From positions 99 to 64,098 of the forward strand of contig CALBKX010000004.1 of assembly GCA_937895935.1 (NCBI GenBank): DNA of 64,000 bases, given 5' to 3'. The position numbers and the translations under genes were made by a program. The DNA comes from an uncultured Clostridia bacterium (GTDB lineage: Bacteria; Bacillota; Clostridia; Christensenellales; UBA1242). The notes below the pieces were generated by a model, which saw nothing but the letters and a program-made list of their open reading frames with translations, did no database searches and was not told the DNA's origin. This document shows positions 1,802 to 61,500 of the stretch, piece after piece (the first letter of the stretch is position 1; every line of letters begins with the position of its first letter).

Positions 1802-4800
1802 ATGAAAAAATCAATAAAGAGAACAGCAGCAGCCGTATTAGCAGTAGCAACAACTGCAGGAATTGCAAGTACAACATCTCTTTCTTTAACAAAAACAAGT
1901 TTAAATAACAATAGTAGTTCTGTATTCGCTGAGCCATCTGTGTTGGCAGAACGCAACACTTTAAACATCTCTAAATATAAAAAAGTTGTTAGTTTATATG
2001 GTAGATTTGAATTACCTACTGTTGAATTTGTAAATGATGCAGGAACAACTACTGCAATCACTCAGTTCAAAGTAACAACTCCTATAGGCGAAACTTTTGA
2101 CCAAAATGATGCAAGAATAACTTCTAATGGCTTTGATGTTGATTCTATTGGAACATATACTATTGCATATGAACAAGGTGATTATAAAGGCGAAGTTACT
2201 TTTGAAGTAGAAACATCTAATTATAGTGTTTCTTTAAGAGAAAACACTTCAAATTTGTTGCCTAAAAAAGTTGCAATCAAAAACGAAGATGGCACTGCAT
2301 TCACTAAAGTTTTCAATGTGCCTACTTTTGAAGTTATTGATGAAAATGGAGATGTTGTTGATCAAAACAATTTAATTGTTGAAATTAAACTTACTAAACC
2401 TGATTTTAGTACAGTTGATATTTCTAGTACTAAAACTGTTGTTTTTGACGACACCAACGCTATTCAAGAAGGCAATTATATTGTAACTTATAAAGTATAT
2501 AGCAAAAAAGGTGAAGAAAAAGGCGAGTATTTGTGTGAAACTTCAACTGAATTTAGAGCCGTAACTGAAGATGTTTACAATAATAAATATGATTTAACAT
2601 TAGTTTACGGAAGTGAACTTCCTACAACTGTAAACATAGGAAAAACAGTTGAACTCCCAACAATCACAGCAAAAAATGGTTCAGAAGTTGTGCCTACTTT
2701 CTTTACTGTAAAAGTTTACAAAAATAAAGGCGAACAAAGAACACTTATTAATGAAACAGATGTTATTGAAGGAACAGACAAAAAAATTATCACAAAAAAT
2801 GATAAAGGGGTTTATGAATTCACTGCAGATGAAATTGGTGCATATTACAGAGTAGAATACACCGTTGAAGATGCTTTGGGTAATAAAAAAGAAACTCAAT
2901 TTAACATTACAAATGTTGTTGACACTGAAAATCCAACTCCACTTGTTGTGGACGCATATACAGTTCAAGACGGCAAAGTTGTTGATGCTGACAAGGTTGT
3001 TGATAAAGCATATGATTTAAAATCTATGTTTGGCACAGAAGATGTTGTAATTAAAGCAATTTATGGACAAGACCTTGGAACATTTAATTATTCAGGCTTT
3101 ACTTTTGAAAGAAAAATTGAAAACTCATCTGGTCAAGTTGTTTACTCTAACAATAATAAAGAAGATGCTGGTAAAAACCTTGTGTTTAACCATAGTGAAA
3201 CAGCGCCTGAACTTGATTCAACAAAAAATATTGTTGTTGATAAAAAATTATCAGACGGTTACTATTATGTTTACTATATTGTAACAGATGCAAATGGCAA
3301 AACTGCTCAAGTTGGATATAAATTTACAATCCAAAGCAATTTTGACTGGACTGATAGTACAACATTAAAAGAAATTAAACCAACTGTAACATTCAATGAC
3401 ACTTTCTATTCTTCAGTTGACCTTGGTGAAAAGATTGAATTTAGTAAAGTTACTTTTACCGATGAAAAAGACGAAAGATTAGACACAAGTGTTTACTATA
3501 CTTACACAGTTGGTGGCGTAGAAGGCGACAAACAAACATTAGAACTTGATTCTAATGATAAATATACAATAAACACTAAACAAGCTCCTACTAATGCCGA
3601 AAAAGTTACTATTTATGCTAAAGCCATAAATGACGGCGGAAAAGAAACAATTGAAAAAAGAGAAATTGTTTTAAAATCAGAAATTTTGGGCACTTCTGTT
3701 CCAAAAATTGTTGAAATTGATGATGCAGGCTATTCATATTCTTATGTTCAAAATAAAATTATCACTATTCCAACAATGAAATTTACTGATGGAACTGATT
3801 CAGTGGATTCTTTAAATGCAAGAGTTTCAATTAAATGTACAGATGCAGATGGCAATGTTACTGATGTTCCTGCAAATGATCCTTGTTCTTTTAAAGTTGG
3901 TGGATATTTCATTTATTCTAACACTAAATTTGTTGCAAGCAAGGCAGGTGAATATTTAGTAAGTGTTAGGGTTACAGATGCTGCTGGAAATACAACAATC
4001 AAATTCTTAAAGTATACAGTTACAGATGCTGGTTATGCAGGAAATTTACGTTTTGCTAATTTACCTAATGATGAATTAGAAACTATTTCACTTGGTGATA
4101 AATATAAATTATATGCGGCAACAATCACAGGTACAAACAGTGATAAGTACGATTATTATGTAATGTGTACTAAAGCTGCTGGCGACTATGAATTGTCTAA
4201 TAGTGAATTTAGACCATTGGCAATTGGTGAATATGAAATTAAATATGTAATGTATAATAAATCAAATATTAATGATATTGTAACTGACCAATCAATCACA
4301 TTAAAATTCAATGTAAAAGATGAGGTTGGTCCAGAAATCAATGTAAACTGGGAAACTGAAGCAGTTAAAGCACCTAATGCTACAGAAACTGATAAAACAA
4401 AACAAAGTATTTTACCTGCTTACGAAAAAGGTACAACTATTTTAATTCCAAAATTCTCTGCTAGTGATTTATCTGGTATAGATGTTGAAAAATCAATGAT
4501 TGAAATTAAAACTACAAGTGGCTCTAAGTACAGCACTTCAACAAAAATCAAATACAAAGATATGGTTGAAAAGTACAATAGAGGTCTTGCTGGTGAAACA
4601 AATCAAACTATGTTCTACACATTTGATTATGATGCAGAATATAACATCATTTACACTGCTTATGATAAAAATGGCAATGCTACAACAAAAACTTTCTCAA
4701 TTAAAATTGGGGACTTAATTCCTCCAACATTAACTGTTAAAGATGAAATTGTTAACACTACTTATAAAGCTGGACAAACTTTAACAATTGACCTTGCTGA

Positions 4801-11225: not shown

Positions 11226-11747
11226 ATGAAAAATTATTATGAAATAATTGGCGTGGAAGTAAACGCAAGTTATGAAGAGATAAAAAAGGCATACTTAAGA
11301 AAAATGAAAAAATATCACCCAGATGTGTATGAGGGTGATAAGAATTTTGCATTAGAAAAAACAGCGGAAATAAATGAGGCATATAATATACTAAAAGATG
11401 AAGAGCAAAGAAGGGTTTATGATTTAACCAATAATTTTAATGAAAATTCAAATGAAGAAGCAATAAAAAACAACGAAACCGAAGATGCAAACATCTTAAA
11501 AGACTTTGGTAAAAAAATCGGAAGTTTTTTTAAAGGATTAAAATCTGATTTAAAAAATTTTGCAAGTAGAAAAAAACAAACCAACAATAAAGATTTAAAA
11601 AATGAAAAGGAACAAAAAGAATTTTTAAGTGAAGAAGATAAAGAAACATACCTAAACAAAAAGGAAAAAATTAAAAACAAAATAATTATATGGTCTTTGC
11701 TTTTGATTGTGGCTGTTTTAATAATTATCTCTATAAGGCTATTTTAA
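11226..11747 (+). CDS. J-domain (DnaJ-like) protein with C-terminal TM anchor
   Basis: KNYYEIIGV...YHPD motif, K/E-rich linker, C-terminal [21 protein letters not shown] 11226 is preferred over GTG 11205. Confidence 0.8.
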
Positions 11748-11792
11748 AGAATTTCTAAACTAAATATTTTTCAATTTAACAAATATTTATTG

Positions 11793-12182
11793 TTAGAAAA
11801 TGTTTTCAAAACTTACACCCATAATGTGACTATAGGCAGAACTGTAAAAAAGTACAAGTTCTAAACTTGTGGTATATTCTTCTTTTATATTGTTTTTTGC
11901 ATATGAAATCATACGCATTATTTCATTCCCCATATCTGTCATATCTTTATGATTAACAAAAAAACATAATGCATCTTCATATTTTATCCAAAAATTTTTT
12001 AACACTCTAGTTTTAGTTATTATTTCTTCAGTGTTTAAATTTTCTGTTGTTAGTGCAAGAGAGTATAATTCATTGCCTTGACTGTTGATTTCTGTAAGTG
12101 TCTTTCGTACAATAATTTCTTCAGTGACACAAACGCCTATTAAAAAAATTGAAATAATTATAATACTTAAAAGTCTTTTCAC
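11793..12182 (-). CDS. DUF4363-like small membrane-anchored protein
   Basis: GTG start preceded by AAAGGAG. N-terminal TM segment. Sits immediately downstream of a DUF421 gene, the usual pairing as I recall it. Confidence 0.6.
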   Translation of the reverse strand: MKRLLSIIIISIFLIGVCVTEEIIVRKTLTEINSQGNELYSLALTTENLNTEEIITKTRVLKNFWIKYEDALCFFVNHKDMTDMGNEIMRMISYAKNNIKEEYTTSLELVLFYSSAYSHIMGVSFENIF

Positions 12183-12194
12183 TACAATGCTCCT

Positions 12195-12893
12195 TTAATT
12201 AGCATCTATAATTTTGCAAGGTTTATTCTTCTCTTGAAAAAATATTTCACCTTGTTTTGTGATTGTTAAAACTAAAACTTGTTTTATAGATTTAACATTT
12301 TGTTTCTTTAATATATCATTAAAATATTCCTTGGACTTATCGCTCATTTTCAAGTTTTCTTTCATATATGAACCTTCAGAGATTATTGTAAGAGGAAGAG
12401 TATCTTCTTCTTTTTTTATTTTCATATCGCCATTGGTAACTGGCGAATTTTCTGGTTTTGGCATAACACTTACTTTGCCATTGGTTTCCATAATGGCATA
12501 TAGAACTTCGCTAAAACTAAAATAGCCAGATTCTCTAATTGCTTCAAATAAATCGTCTATAGTTATGTTTAATTTTTTTAATGATTCATAATTTATTCCT
12601 GTTTGATCAATTACAATTACAGGCTTACCACTTATGAAATTACTAAACCCTGTACTAGCTCTTGTTAAACTGGTAATTACAAAGTGAAAAACAACTAATG
12701 TTAAAAGCGGTACAACACCATTTAAAAGTGGCACACTCATTTCTGCCATTGGGATGGTTGCAAGGTCCGCTATTATCAATGTCAAAACCAATTCAAAAGG
12801 TTGCATTTGACCTAATTGACGTTTTCCCATAAGTCTAAAAACAAAAAGAATTAAAACATAAATCAATAAAACTCTAATAATAATTGTAATCAT
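12195..12893 (-). CDS. DUF421 (YetF-like) membrane protein
   Basis: The MGKRQLGQMQPFELVLTLIIADLA motif is characteristic of the YetF/DUF421 family. Confidence 0.75.
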   Translation of the reverse strand: MITIIIRVLLIYVLILFVFRLMGKRQLGQMQPFELVLTLIIADLATIPMAEMSVPLLNGVVPLLTLVVFHFVITSLTRASTGFSNFISGKPVIVIDQTGINYESLKKLNITIDDLFEAIRESGYFSFSEVLYAIMETNGKVSVMPKPENSPVTNGDMKIKKEEDTLPLTIISEGSYMKENLKMSDKSKEYFNDILKKQNVKSIKQVLVLTITKQGEIFFQEKNKPCKIIDAN

Positions 12894-16070: not shown

Positions 16071-17540
16071 ATGGAAAATACACAAAATTTGTCTAATGAA
16101 TTTGATATTAGAAAAGAAAAAATAAATATACTTGAAAAAAATGGTGAAATTGTATATAAAGAAAAATTCGAAAGAACTAATACAATTGAAGAAGCGAGAA
16201 CTTTGGGCGATGGTGCAAAAGTTAAAATTGCAGGTAGAATTGTTTTTAAACGTGTTATGGGTAAATTTGGATTTATGCAAATCCGTGACCTTAAAGCAAA
16301 AATTCAAGTAAGTGTTGGCATTAACGAGTTGGAACCTGAAAAATATGATTTTTATAAAAAAATGATTGATATCGGTGACTTTGTTGGCGTTGAAGGTGAA
16401 ATATATACAACTCAAACAGGGGAAATAACTGTTAGAGCATTTAATGTTACTCTTCTTTCTAAAGCATTAAGACCTCTTCCAGAAAAATTCCACGGATTAA
16501 CTGACTTGGAAGCAAAATATCGTCAAAGATATTTAGATTTAATTTCTAATGAAGAAACAAGACAGGTTTTTATTGGTAGAAGTAAACTTTTAGGCTTTAT
16601 AAGAAAATATTTAGGTGAAAATGGGTTTTTGGAAGTGGAAACTCCAATTTTACAAAGTGCGGTTTGTGGGGCAAGTGCTAAACCTTTTTTCACTCATCAC
16701 AATGCTCTTGACAAAGAAATGAATTTACGAATAGCTCCTGAAACTTACTTAAAACAATGCATTGCTGGCGGGTTTGATAGAGTTTTTGAAGTCGCAAAGT
16801 GTTTTAGAAATGAAGGTATGGACACACAACACTTGCAGGAATTTACACAAGTTGAATGGTACGCATCTTACTGGAATTTTGAAGATAATATTAAATTTTT
16901 CCAAGGTTTTATAAAAAATTTATTGTTGGAATTAACCGGTAAAACAACCATTGAAAAAGATGATGTGACTCTTGATTTTGGAAAAGAAAATTTTGATAGA
17001 ATAAATTATGTTGAAAAAATGAGAGAAATTCTTGGCTTTGACTTTTTAGACTATAATGACCCTATTGAACTTAAAAACAAAGTTATTGAAACAGGAATTT
17101 TTACTGCTCAAGATTTGAATGATTATAAGTCTGTAAGTCAAATAATTGATTTCATCTACAAAAAGAAAATCCGTGAAAACATTATTCAACCAACGATTCT
17201 TTATAATTATCCGGCTGTTTTAATACCTCTTGCAAGACGTAACGATAAAGATTCAAGAATTATTGATGTTTTCCAAGTTGTTGTTATGGGAACTGAACTT
17301 TGCAAAGCATATTCAGAACTTGTAAATCCTATACAACAACGCAAAGCTTTCGAGGCGCAACTTGAAGCAAAAAAACAAGGTGATGACGAAACTATGGACT
17401 TGGATGAAGGTTTTATGCTTGCAATGGAACATGGTATGCCACCAATCTCTGGACTTGGTTGCGGACTTGATAGATTGCTTATGCTTATTTATAACCAACC
17501 ATCAGTTAGGGATGTTGTGTTGTTTCCGATTATGAAGTAA
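16071..17540 (+). CDS. lysS: lysine--tRNA ligase (class II)
   Basis: OB-fold segment VKIAGRIVFKRVMGKFGFMQIRD, motif 2 FRNEGMD..EFTQVEWY, and motif 3 MPPISGLGCGLDRLLM. Confidence 0.9.
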   Translation: MENTQNLSNEFDIRKEKINILEKNGEIVYKEKFERTNTIEEARTLGDGAKVKIAGRIVFKRVMGKFGFMQIRDLKAKIQVSVGINELEPEKYDFYKKMIDIGDFVGVEGEIYTTQTGEITVRAFNVTLLSKALRPLPEKFHGLTDLEAKYRQRYLDLISNEETRQVFIGRSKLLGFIRKYLGENGFLEVETPILQSAVCGASAKPFFTHHNALDKEMNLRIAPETYLKQCIAGGFDRVFEVAKCFRNEGMDTQHLQEFTQVEWYASYWNFEDNIKFFQGFIKNLLLELTGKTTIEKDDVTLDFGKENFDRINYVEKMREILGFDFLDYNDPIELKNKVIETGIFTAQDLNDYKSVSQIIDFIYKKKIRENIIQPTILYNYPAVLIPLARRNDKDSRIIDVFQVVVMGTELCKAYSELVNPIQQRKAFEAQLEAKKQGDDETMDLDEGFMLAMEHGMPPISGLGCGLDRLLMLIYNQPSVRDVVLFPIMK

Positions 17541-17892
17541 AGGCGGGTAAATTATTCGCTTCGCTTAAGGATGACGCCTTAAAGGGCGTCATAACCCGCT
17601 CATCGAACTAATTTACCCGCCTTAGGGGAAGCCACTTGGCGAAGCGGGGCTCCGAAGTTTGAATTTACTTATGGATGCGGTTCTAAAGCTCGCATAACCC
17701 GTAAATTCAAATCAAAACACCTTTAGGGGAATAAAACCACTTGGCGAAGTATATCTTCGCGGGTGTTTTTTTTATAATTGGGTAAATTATTCGCTTCGCT
17801 TAAGGATGACGCCTTAAAGGGCGTCATAACCCGCTCATCGAATTAATTTACCCGCCTTAGGGGAAGCCACTTAACGAAGCGGGACTCCGAAT
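17541..17892 (+). repeat. three tandem GC-rich structured repeat units (A 17541..17657, B 17658..17773, C 17779..17892); candidate ncRNA or repeat family
   Basis: Each unit is a long hairpin (A/C arms GGGTAAATTA / TAATTTACCC; B arms TTTGAATTTAC / GTAAATTCAAA) followed by the tail TAGGGGAA..CCACTT(GG/AA)CGAAG and a small hairpin. A and C are near-identical. B shares the structure and the inner motif GGATG.CG...TAAAG..CG.CATAACCCG. The orientation given is only that of the motif as read. Confidence 0.65.
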
Positions 17893-18127
17893 ATTTTTCT
17901 CCCCTGCCAAGGGGAGGTGGCAGTTATGAATTGACTGACGGAGAGGTTTTTTTATGCTTTCCCTTATGTAAATGCTTGCTATGGCAAACGAGATTTGACT
18001 ATAGAGTTTCCCTTAATTTTTCTCTAGCGATTTGCTATTCAAAATATTATACTTGTTTTTTTAATCAAACAACTAGTTTTGTGGTGAGCGAAGCATTAGG
18101 CAATAATATTTATATTTACATTCAATA

Positions 18128-18156
18128 TTGACAAGGGGTACTAGGTATGGTAAACT
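18128..18156 (+). promoter_or_regulatory. sigma-70-type promoter of the metallophosphoesterase operon
   Basis: TTGACA, 17 nt spacer, TAAACT. GAAGGGG RBS and ATG at 18178. Confidence 0.55.
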
Positions 18157-18177
18157 TTTAAGTGAAAGAAGGGGAAA

Positions 18178-19284
18178 ATGGAAGACGCAAAAAAGAAAAT
18201 TAAAAAACTTAAAAACCCAAATGATATAAGGACTATTTCTGATATTGATTTGAGATTAAAAAGTTTTAAAGAGCAAATTAAGGCTGACGATTTTAGTCCT
18301 ATTAAAACTATATTTAAGGATTTATCTCAGCATAGTCAAGTTATGCTTTTGGTTTTGAATGATTTACATATAGGTTCGCCGGGGTGTAATATTGATAAAA
18401 TTATTAGATACTTAAAACAAGTTAGAAATTTGCCTAATTGTTACATAATTTTAAATGGTGATTTAATGAATAATGCAAACAATTTAGGTAAATCAAGTCC
18501 ACTTGAAAATGATTTATCTCCTATGAACGAGCAAAAAGTTATTCATACACTTTTTTCTGATCCAATTTTAAAAGAAAAAATTATATGTTCAACAAGTGGT
18601 AATCACGAAAGTGGTGCAAGGGCTAAGGATTCAGGACTTGATTCGCTAGTTACGCCAATGGCAACTTTAAACATTTTGGACATTTATGCTAGATATATGG
18701 CAAATGTTGTCATAAGATTAAAATGTCCATACACCACAAGTGGTTACACTGATTTTAAAATTTTAGTAAGGCACGGAAGTGGACTTAGTGGACAGGCGGG
18801 AAAAGTTATTGATGGTATGTTTGCGTTATGTCAAAAATTTGGTAATTTTGATATGGTGGTTCAAGGACATACACACAAAAATATTTATTCTTCGGAAGAT
18901 GTTGTTTATCAAAACGATAAATACTCTTGTTTAAAAAAGAGTGTAACACCAATAAATATTCCTGCCTTAGAGGAGGCTAGTCAATATGCAATGGAGTCTG
19001 CTTATCCACCTCCAAACACTGATAATAGTATAATTTGTGTGAGAGCTACTTTTAATTATGATATTTTAGATTCTTCACTTAACGATGGGTTTAAAGTGCT
19101 TCCTTATAAATTTAATATTGACACCATAAGTTTAGATAGGCCAGAATTGGTTAAATTTGGTGACAAAATTATTCCTCAAGCAAAATTTATCTCACAAGAA
19201 AAATTGGAAGAAATTGCAACAAGTATGGCTAAAAAAGTGACATCTAAAGCTCGAAAACCTAAAAATTTAGAAAGAGAGGTTTAA
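18178..19284 (+). CDS. calcineurin-like metallophosphoesterase (all five motifs intact)
   Basis: Motifs LNDLHIG (DxH), LNGDLMNN (GD), SGNHE (GNHE), VRHGSG (H) and QGHTHK (GHxH). Confidence 0.8.
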   Translation: MEDAKKKIKKLKNPNDIRTISDIDLRLKSFKEQIKADDFSPIKTIFKDLSQHSQVMLLVLNDLHIGSPGCNIDKIIRYLKQVRNLPNCYIILNGDLMNNANNLGKSSPLENDLSPMNEQKVIHTLFSDPILKEKIICSTSGNHESGARAKDSGLDSLVTPMATLNILDIYARYMANVVIRLKCPYTTSGYTDFKILVRHGSGLSGQAGKVIDGMFALCQKFGNFDMVVQGHTHKNIYSSEDVVYQNDKYSCLKKSVTPINIPALEEASQYAMESAYPPPNTDNSIICVRATFNYDILDSSLNDGFKVLPYKFNIDTISLDRPELVKFGDKIIPQAKFISQEKLEEIATSMAKKVTSKARKPKNLEREV

Positions 19285-61065: not shown

Positions 61066-61143
61066 AAAATCTCCTTTTAACTTAAGTTTAAGTGTATCAC
61101 AATGGTTTTTTGTTTGGCAATCTTTTTGAAAGATATTTAAAAA

Positions 61144-61422
61144 GATGTAAATGTTTGCTTTCACTTTGAGCTTTGCATTTAATCACCAAGTGACGGTTAA
61201 ATGCTACTCGGGTATCGTTCAAGCAAAACATTTACATCTAGGGGCAAGAGGCCACTTGGCGAAGCAAGTTCTTCGAAGCATTGCAATGTTTGCTTAAGGC
61301 TCAAGCACTACGGGTTTTTGCTTACATAACTACGAGCAAAACCTTTTGCGATAAACTCGCTTAAAGCAAATCATTTACATCTTGTAGGGAATAGGACACT
61401 TGGCGAAGTGAAGGCTTCGAAG
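61144..61422 (+). repeat. two tandem structured repeat units (D 61144..61279, E 61280..61422) of the same family as 17541..17892
   Basis: Unit D has hairpin arms GATGTAAATGTTTGCTT / AAGCAAAACATTTACATC and tail TAGGGGCAAGAGGCCACTTGGCGAAGcaagttCTTCGAAG. Unit E has arms AATGTTTGCTTAAG / CTTAAAGCAAATCATT and tail TAGGGAATAGGACACTTGGCGAAGtgaaggCTTCGAAG. Confidence 0.6.
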
Positions 61423-61500
61423 AAAATTACAGGGTTTAAATGATTACTTATGCAAAGTTTGTTATTAATTTTTTTTTAAAATTGTAGACTAAGCGTTTTT

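Follow-up and report, generated by a model that had tools for sequence, protein, structure and literature searches.

A putative family of composite interspersed repeats at gene 3′ ends, including that of lysS, in an uncultured Clostridia lineage

Composite small interspersed repeats of bacteria are characterized by many separate copies of less than ~200 bp, by modular patterns, and by confinement to a species or its close relatives (PMC3049150). The BOX elements of Streptococcus pneumoniae combine sub-200-bp modules in the order boxA-boxB(n)-boxC, are intergenic and co-transcribed, and vary in length between strains, and the SPRITE elements of the same species are terminator-like and enriched near coding-sequence 3′ ends and have been proposed to serve as terminators by co-option (PMC3049150). 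Arrays of repetitive extragenic palindromic (REP) sequences, known as REP/BIME arrays, and REPINs associated with RAYT transposases have been described in Enterobacteria and Pseudomonas (PMC3116915, PMC3337134). Here, we analyzed 64,000 nucleotides of DNA from an uncultured Clostridia bacterium (contig CALBKX010000004.1, positions 99 to 64,098; this whole stretch is referred to below as the window), in which three GC-rich, hairpin-forming units follow the lysS gene. All three properties of composite small interspersed repeats were found for these units and their relatives. An earlier note on the same DNA had read the units as a novel structured RNA, and our results support that reading in part.

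The most probable explanation of the units is that they belong to a family of composite interspersed repeats that occupies gene ends, would be transcribed with the upstream gene, would supply terminators consisting of a hairpin and a T run, and would change by recombination. The family is multicopy and modular, has a characteristic position and orientation relative to genes, and is polymorphic between strains, with break points inside the modules. Single modules are 30 to 105 nt in size. The H module is a long hairpin of at least four types, types I and II being those of window units A and C and of unit B, respectively, and types III and IV those of units D and E, which form a second array next to cysS. 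H types III and IV are ~95 to 105 nt long and end with AGATGTAAATG and CATTTACATCT. The linker module is usually TAGGGG followed by an A-rich sequence. The T module has the consensus (AATAAAG)CCACTTGGCGAAG-N5-7-CTTCGAAG and contains the short hairpin CACTTGGCGAAG-N5-CTYCG. The X module comprises CCTCCCCTGCCAAGGGGAGGTGGC, a variable hairpin, and GACGGAGAGGTT, often with a T run; this two-hairpin module occurs in both orientations, and a spacer stands between the T and X modules of the arrays.

Searches of the genome collection with a loose pattern, TAGGGN{3,12}CACTTGGCGAAG, returned only matches by chance, in coding DNA of high GC content, or an unrelated repeat made of tRNA fragments (locus L061; related loci and contigs are designated by L numbers). 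The latter, located on the minus strand of a Gastranaerophilales metagenome-assembled genome (4410-4700), consists of three 91-nt tandem units that form a long hairpin and each start by repeating the 5′ third of the neighboring tRNA gene (GGGCGTTTAGCTCA...), the match to the loose pattern being due to chance. A stricter pattern including the short hairpin retrieved eight low-GC contigs from the metagenome collection, all from samples ERZ808275 and ERZ808286, which also contain the LysS of the window, and had zero matches in viral contigs. An exact-pattern scan added 20 matches or near-matches to the tail motif across the eight contigs. In total, more than 100 matches to the H, T, and X modules were found in nine same-species contigs, ~75 of them nonredundant, as two pairs of contigs overlap. 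Profile mapping revealed array layouts such as HtHtX, 12t12tXH, HtHXXX, and 1t2t1tX, with modules co-oriented within most arrays. The T modules of an array were all direct repeats, with no inverted pairs, and only the 7-mer CACTTGG recurred inverted, in the loop of H type III. The sequence (C/T)TAGGGG was located 3 to 9 nt, at times more than 25 nt, upstream of T and was missing in some copies; REP palindromes have a conserved GTAG-type tetranucleotide immediately on their 5′ side. The G run of the linker varied from G4 to G8 (TAGGGGAA versus TAGGGGGGGGAGCC; L131, 7881-7892 and 8027-8038; L142, ~340-352), which suggests slippage. Decay was also observed, certain H copies being truncated or having noncomplementary arms, and chimeras occurred, as in L142. 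A further repeat family without an Rfam match, TTTGCGAAGGCAAACTGAGCAACAGGA..., forms a long hairpin (GGGGGAAATTGTGTCC/GGACAACAATTTCCCCC; L142, 1-260, minus strand; L136, 11030-11469); an H module holds one copy in its loop, and a further copy lies just past an X module.

The 5′ neighbor could be determined for 13 arrays. Ten nonredundant arrays begin 4 to 31 nt past the stop codon of an open reading frame (ORF) located on the same strand, and no array was found in the opposite orientation at a gene end (two-sided binomial probability of 10/10, ~0.002). The flanking genes are housekeeping genes, encoding LysS, CysS, rubrerythrin, thioredoxin, peptide deformylase, DUF378, and AcnX. Replication-strand bias was rejected as the cause of the orientation, since the arrays of L142 face both ways within 2 kb, each after its own gene. 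According to the proposed explanation, the arrays would be transcribed as the 3′ untranslated region (UTR) of the upstream gene, and the X modules and T derivatives that carry T runs would act as its intrinsic terminators.

Comparison of strains revealed how the arrays differ. Among 14 contigs encoding exactly the LysS of the window, ten were compared. Three of the ten were 235 nt shorter after the gene and contained a single unit composed of the 5′ flank of unit A and the 3′ part of unit C, all remaining bases up to the next gene being identical to those of the long form. The break point can be placed anywhere within ~70 nt common to A and C, the pattern expected from unequal crossing-over between direct repeats or from a deletion between them. 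Of the T modules, the short form has kept the decayed one of unit C alone, and the T of a sister species resembles that of unit A; the form with three units is therefore probably the older of the two. A second variant concerns cysS: in five full-length contigs and the truncated L158, the H module of unit D and the last T module are the same as in the window and the flanks are identical, but two reversed X modules replace the T of unit D and the H of unit E between the shared modules. Several assemblies end inside arrays. Gene conversion and unequal crossing-over among the dispersed copies would shift the number and content of units, and the family would persist chiefly in the form of DNA that is selfish or nearly neutral and is tolerated at the ends of genes.

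More distant relatives differ at the same site. In L148 (LysS, 85% identity), the synteny of lysS with the downstream Metallophos gene is conserved, with a plain terminator only and none of the units. In L159 (92%), the 58 nt following lysS contain none of these repeats, and unrelated AT-rich sequence follows lysS in L146 and L161 (both 92%). In L144 (85%), lysS is followed by 3.5 copies of an unrelated 141-nt tandem repeat (11562-12053), whose copies are 98% identical and whose minus strand folds better. In L143 and L147 (91%), a different multi-hairpin domain starts right at the stop codon and is followed by CCCTTGGCGAAG-CACCG-CTCCGAAG and by X-like modules, and in L162 (91%), the same hairpin domain precedes a simple terminator, without T and with a reversed X. 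The unusual CTCCGAAG form of T with a 5-nt loop is located after lysS both in unit A of the window and in the sister species (L143 and L147). In these two loci (L143, 11800-11960; L147, 11830-11955), a ~370-nt segmental duplication comprises the diverged last ~30 nt of lysS and the following hairpin-plus-T unit. Within this clade, structured repeats seem to have a hotspot at the 3′ end of lysS. Exact T plus hairpin sequences were found only in same-species contigs of the metagenome collection and diverged T, H′, or X only in lineages with a LysS identity of 91%; family modules were not found at the examined loci of lineages with LysS identities of 83 to 85%, nor in two of the lineages with 92%. 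The family appears from these comparisons to be limited to a few closely related lineages and to undergo quick gain, loss, and reshuffling.

In the window, lysS (16071-17540, plus strand; 489 residues) encodes the domains of a class II Lys-tRNA ligase and ends with a TAA codon at 17538-17540. Unit A starts 1 nt past this stop codon, and units A, B, and C are each ~115 nt long. The earlier note had described three structured, GC-rich units directly after lysS; this description holds, and every sequence that it quoted is present. Unit A (17541-17657, plus strand, as are the other units and the terminal X module of the window) consists of an H module of type I (17541..17621), with the basal stem GGCGGGTAAATTA/TAATTTACCCGCC and the inner stem ATGACGCC/GGCGTCAT, followed by the linker TTAGGGGAAG and a T module, CCACTTGGCGAAG-CGGGG-CTCCGAAG (17622..17657). 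Its fold energy is −49.6 kcal/mol, and it matches the type-I nhmmer profile at 17545-17618 (E = 6e-27). Unit B (17658-17773) contains a shorter hairpin, TTTAGGGGAATAAAA, CCACTTGGCGAAG-TATAT-CTTCGC-GGGTG, and T8. Its H module of type II (17658..17711), also present in L133 and L137, has the stem TTTGAATTTAC/GTAAATTCAAA and matches the type-II nhmmer profile (E = 7.5e-17); the core GGATG..TAAAG..CATAACCCG agrees with that of type I and the stem arms are exchanged. The outer stem of unit B had been described as different in sequence with the fold kept. The common architecture holds, but the difference consists of a swap of the arms of the same GTAAATT/AATTTAC rather than of independent compensation. 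The rest of the unit (17712..17773) consists of a linker (..ACACCTTTAGGGGAATAAAA), a terminator-like hairpin formed by an extended T (CACTT-G-GCGAAG TATAT CTTCGC-GG-GTG), and T8 (17766-17773). In unit C (17780-17892), the H module is again of type I, but the 5′ GGC is missing from its basal stem; TTAGGGGAAG and a decayed T, CCACTTAACGAAG-CGGGA-CTCCGAAT, follow. The conserved tail and short hairpin attributed to all three units are thus present in units A and B, but CCACTTAACGAAG of unit C has two mismatches to the consensus. Exact CCACTTGGCGAAG occurs in the window at positions 17632, 17737, and 61252. The z-scores against shuffled controls were −4.1, −4.75, and −3.3 for units A, B, and C, respectively, none of 200 shuffles being equally stable in each case.

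The array ends with an X module (17898..17953) composed of the hairpin CTCCCC-TGCCAA-GGGGAG, TGGC, a variable hairpin, GACGGAGAGG, and T7, which covariance model R1 recognized with 71.9 bits (E = 5e-20). Both T runs that had been reported, T8 behind the extended hairpin of unit B and T7 in a hairpin element after unit C (17947-17953), were recovered. In a pattern scan of 17300-18300, the tail of unit B was the sole terminator (stem at 17744-17760, GGGTG, and T8), and T was likewise turned into a perfect hairpin followed by a T run at the ends of other arrays, for example in L135 and L139 (CCACTTGGCGAAGCATATCTTCGCAGGTGG plus T7). The T7 of X follows GGAGAGG, which is able to pair with the 5′ CCTCYCC, and the local two-hairpin fold leaves 9 to 10 nt before the T run; the X module of the window is probably the final terminator of lysS, plausible rather than canonical. 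According to the proposed mechanism, the hairpin and T8 of unit B would stop most lysS transcripts and X with T7 would stop the remainder. X modules also end with the Shine-Dalgarno-like GGAGAGG, with an ATG 5 to 9 nt further on (window, 17940-17975; X of L128, L131, L135, and L139). This ATG often belongs to an ATG-TAA start-stop pair opening the next H module, and in the window it starts a 5-codon ORF.

Structured, GC-rich tandem units with terminator-like hairpins upstream of a plus-strand gene could also be a cis-regulatory leader, i.e., a tandem riboswitch or attenuator, of the downstream Metallophos gene (18178, plus strand). However, a good promoter-like site belonging to this gene (TTGACA-17-TAAACT, with TG; 18128-18156) is located past the array, the same gene pair lacks the units in L148, the same modules follow many unrelated genes, and no riboswitch of Rfam matches, making a leader function very improbable. 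A different promoter-like arrangement was seen in L147 (~12715-12745) and L161 (~3785-3815), in which TTGACA, a 16-nt spacer including a run of nine G, and TATAAT or TACAAT precede a gene (encoding DUF6273 in L147). A spacer with such a G run is the classic layout of promoters that are phase variable by slipped-strand mispairing.

Folding analyses gave different results for the different modules. X covaried strongly, since 96.6% of cells were paired in 35 copies from two species versus 80% in shuffles, and double-sided changes amounted to 75 versus 22, in an alignment that was fitted to the covariance model; none of 500 shuffles reached the observed values, and slid controls were far lower. 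X was more stable on the plus strand in 19 of 19 copies. H modules fold at ~−20 to −39 kcal/mol. Types III and IV contain five unrelated inner-stem sequences, each able to pair as judged by individual folds, which corresponds to module replacement, not to stepwise compensation. With 18 H copies, RNAalifold yielded the invariant basal stem alone, as the lengths of the inner hairpins vary. T forms a stem of 5 plus 3 bp with a GG bulge; it did not show covariation, and its structure has no separate support.

These data bear on the possibility that the H-T unit is a functional structured RNA, acting as a 3′-UTR-derived small RNA, a protein sponge, or a T-bound stabilizer. The orientation following the upstream gene in all ten gene-end arrays is expected from such a role, as are the invariant arms and free loops of T, the conservation of the same unusual T after lysS in two species that differ in H, the hairpin maintained by H with five unrelated inner stems, and the complementarity of the type-III loop CCAAGTG to CACTTGG of T. 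Conversely, strains vary in the number and content of their units, the elements are missing from this site in close relatives, chimeric or truncated copies occur often, T shows no changes that would compensate for the variants of the H loop, the opposite strand gives the better fold of H, and T never covaries. The covariation of the inner stem between units A and C and unit B, on which the novel RNA reading partly relied, did not survive scrutiny, since the five distinct copies contain two double changes and six broken cells, and 86 of 500 shuffles scored as high. The pseudoknot proposed between the hairpin interior CGCTTCGC and the tail GCGAAGCG is compatible with the complementarity in units A (8 nt) and C (7 nt), but it is weakened without compensation in the type-I copy of L137, in which the interior CGCTTCGT and the tail GCGAAGAG form ~6 pairs, including one G-U. 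With the type I/II covariation at control level, the arm swap, and the uncompensated pseudoknot, the implied discrete new structured RNA was not substantiated, and we consider a functional RNA class quite unlikely.

The T module argues for a further component. Its near-invariant arms and the unusual CTCCGAAG form kept after lysS in two species suggest that some factor may recognize the T hairpin. In its specific form, this idea holds that T (CACTT-GG-CGAAG, loop, and CTTCG-AAG) is a recognition site for a protein, either a REP/RAYT-like domesticated transposase or an RNA-binding factor marking 3′ UTRs, which we retain as a tentative and rather improbable proposal. If it were correct, the arrays would be a maintained partnership between host and element rather than junk, with H as exchangeable cargo, and, in the case of a transposase, they would be part of a REP/RAYT-like system not yet described in Clostridia. 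A related explanation is that the elements are REP- or REPIN-like hairpins of single-stranded DNA mobilized by a RAYT or an IS200/IS605 Y1 transposase, with T as the recognized hairpin and H as the REPIN-like part. T is indeed an imperfect palindrome, short and rich in GC, with a bulged GG and arms that hardly vary, and (C/T)TAGGGG usually stands before it; the elements gather at the 3′ ends of genes as REP/BIME do (PMC3116915); and H is a ~95-nt hairpin of two inverted arms that is more stable on one strand owing to G-T pairs, as expected if one DNA strand were the substrate. However, tblastn searches of ~0.5 Mb of redundant DNA, covering part of the genome, with IS608 TnpA and the E. coli RAYT did not detect any Y1 transposase; the T modules are direct and do not form the two inverted REPs that define a REPIN; the distance to TAGGGG is variable and the motif is sometimes missing; and the strain break points inside homologous modules fit recombination over transposition. 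We regard this explanation as unlikely; since it addresses the spread of the elements, it is compatible with the gene-end repeat family proposed above. A REPtron-like arrangement was rejected in L142, in which a 201-residue ORF located between two inverted arrays has no Pfam match and the neighbors are housekeeping genes.

Several observations weigh against a family of near-neutral gene-end repeats co-transcribed with the upstream gene. Three of the 13 arrays, including that of units D and E, are located 65 to 104 nt upstream of a divergently transcribed gene. In 20 of 23 copies, H folded more stably on the other strand than that of T and X, chiefly owing to the two G-U pairs with which CCGTCACTTGGTGG closes, a preference that is a poor fit to a simple plus-strand RNA role for H. 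The arms of T differed by 4.3% between copies versus 51% for the loops (24 copies), making the arms 12 times more conserved, and this invariance, together with the unusual CTCCGAAG T after lysS in two species, points to a sequence-specific constraint beyond what neutral repeats would show. The array has a GC content of 45 to 53%, versus ~27 to 33% for its flanks and ~30% for the genome, unlike typical MITEs (miniature inverted-repeat transposable elements). No target-site duplication was found, AAAG, ACAG, or ATAG preceding H and TAGGGG, TAGAGG, or TTAG following it, and no transposase was present among the ORFs scanned in ~140 kb of this genome. Finally, we infer the role as 3′ UTR and terminator from position, orientation, and sequence. 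The earlier note had considered that the copies might simply be MITE-like DNA; this is largely borne out, since they are multicopy, strain-variable, modular repeats, but without target-site duplications they are not classical MITEs.

The second array of the window, units D and E (61144-61422), which the earlier note had counted together with units A to C, has the same architecture. Unit D (61144..61278) contains an H module of type III, a 95-nt hairpin with the ends GATGTAAATG/CATTTACATC and the loop CCACCAAGTGACGG, followed by a TAGGGG linker and T. Unit E (61285..61422) contains an H module of type IV, the linker TGTAGGGAATAGGA, and T, and a truncated start of H follows (61436-61460). The array adjoins cysS and belongs to the class located upstream of divergent genes rather than behind a co-oriented gene. 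The promoter of cysS is retained between the array and the start codon; its short leader (61066-61143) includes an extended −10 promoter, TTGCCA-N18-TGATACACT, ~25 nt before the ribosome-binding site. The Rfam search did not detect a T-box for cysS or lysS, and the cysS leader is too short to hold one. The loop motif CCAAGTG of H type III is exactly complementary to CACTTGG within the 5′ arm of T (window, 61184-61194 versus 61252-61259; type-III copies in L131, L136, and L142). A pseudoknot between the two was rejected, since T carries no changes compensating for the loop variants CCAAATG, CCAAGAG, and CCTAGAG, and the complementarity is missing from H types I, II, and IV. The opposite strand of the loop region reads GTCACTTGGTGG, resembling GCCACTTGGCG of T.

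The claim that the element matches no known RNA family was upheld, since only tRNA genes passed the Rfam gathering threshold in the window and ten related loci, and the matches of a permissive Rfam search (HEARO, 11.3 of 83 bits; CRISPR-DR30; P14; enod40; and snoR116) did not recur between copies. The weak HEARO alignment of unit A (cmscan, E = 9.6), with the basal stem paired and UUGGCGA(A/G)GCG matched, might suggest a miniaturized relic of HEARO, the omega-RNA of IscB, i.e., a guide RNA of the IS200/IS605 family. The score is far from the gathering threshold of 83 bits, the match is not repeated in the other type-I copy or in units D and E, and no IscB or TnpB is encoded nearby. We give next to no credence to this relic and rejected the alignment as a chance match. 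A literature search for the T 12-mer found only unrelated primer sequences. Use of this 12-mer as a DNA uptake sequence was rejected because its exact form occurs only four times in 64 kb, every time within arrays; a density of four copies per 64 kb is far below that usual for uptake sequences. Integron attC sites, CRISPR or TIGR arrays, and the repeats of type III toxin-antitoxin systems were also rejected, since cassettes, fixed-length spacers, and adjacent effector genes were lacking.

An element that is GC-rich, folds well, has no Rfam match, and lies beside the gene for an aminoacyl-tRNA synthetase mimics a new riboswitch or ribozyme but is not one, and its assignment to a repeat family removes a false lead and provides a warning for the discovery of noncoding RNAs based on GC content in AT-rich genomes. 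A composite repeat family that evolves fast and is not yet described is documented here for an uncultured lineage of gut Clostridia. Its arrays break short-read assemblies at gene ends, could be used as markers for strain typing, and probably supply terminators and 3′ UTR structure to many housekeeping genes. The contrast between the invariant arms and the hypervariable loops of T offers a concrete handle on the factor recognizing or spreading such repeats. To our knowledge, no such factor is known for most families of interspersed repeats besides REP/RAYT.

The comparison with described systems involves several likenesses and differences. The family resembles BOX in its composite modules with a tandem module of variable number, its dispersed intergenic location, its extensive base pairing, its restriction to a taxon, its variation between strains, and, as its position and orientation would predict, its co-transcription with neighboring genes (PMC3049150). 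It differs from BOX in its unrelated sequence, its larger number of module types (H types I to IV, T, and X), its stricter position 4 to 31 nt past stop codons, and its GC richness relative to the genome; no insertion sequence with matching terminal repeats is known. Similar to SPRITE, X and certain T variants carry T runs, but X comprises two hairpins, the second of which varies freely, and occurs in both orientations, and the H-T units without T runs have no counterpart in SPRITE. The likeness to MITEs (Correia elements, RUP, and Nezha) lies in the 10- to 12-bp terminal inverted repeats of H (AGATGTAAATG/CATTTACATCT), its single long hairpin of ~95 nt, and its multiple copies; the differences are the lack of a consistent target-site duplication, the absence of AT richness, the head-to-tail chaining with T, and polymorphisms resembling homologous recombination. 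Like REP/BIME, the family consists of GC-rich imperfect palindromes at gene 3′ ends, arranged in mosaic arrays with variable linkers and with a short motif near the hairpin, and H resembles the long-hairpin form of REPINs. In contrast to REP/BIME, T is repeated directly rather than in alternation, TAGGGG does not directly abut the hairpin, the repeats reside in a Firmicute, and no RAYT gene, which REP/REPIN-RAYT systems have as a single copy (Y1 transposase) flanked by the repeats, was found in the tblastn search described above. Sharing no sequence with BOX, SPRITE, REP/BIME, or REPIN and being absent from Rfam, these elements appear, on the basis of the comparisons made here, to form a new family of composite interspersed repeats.

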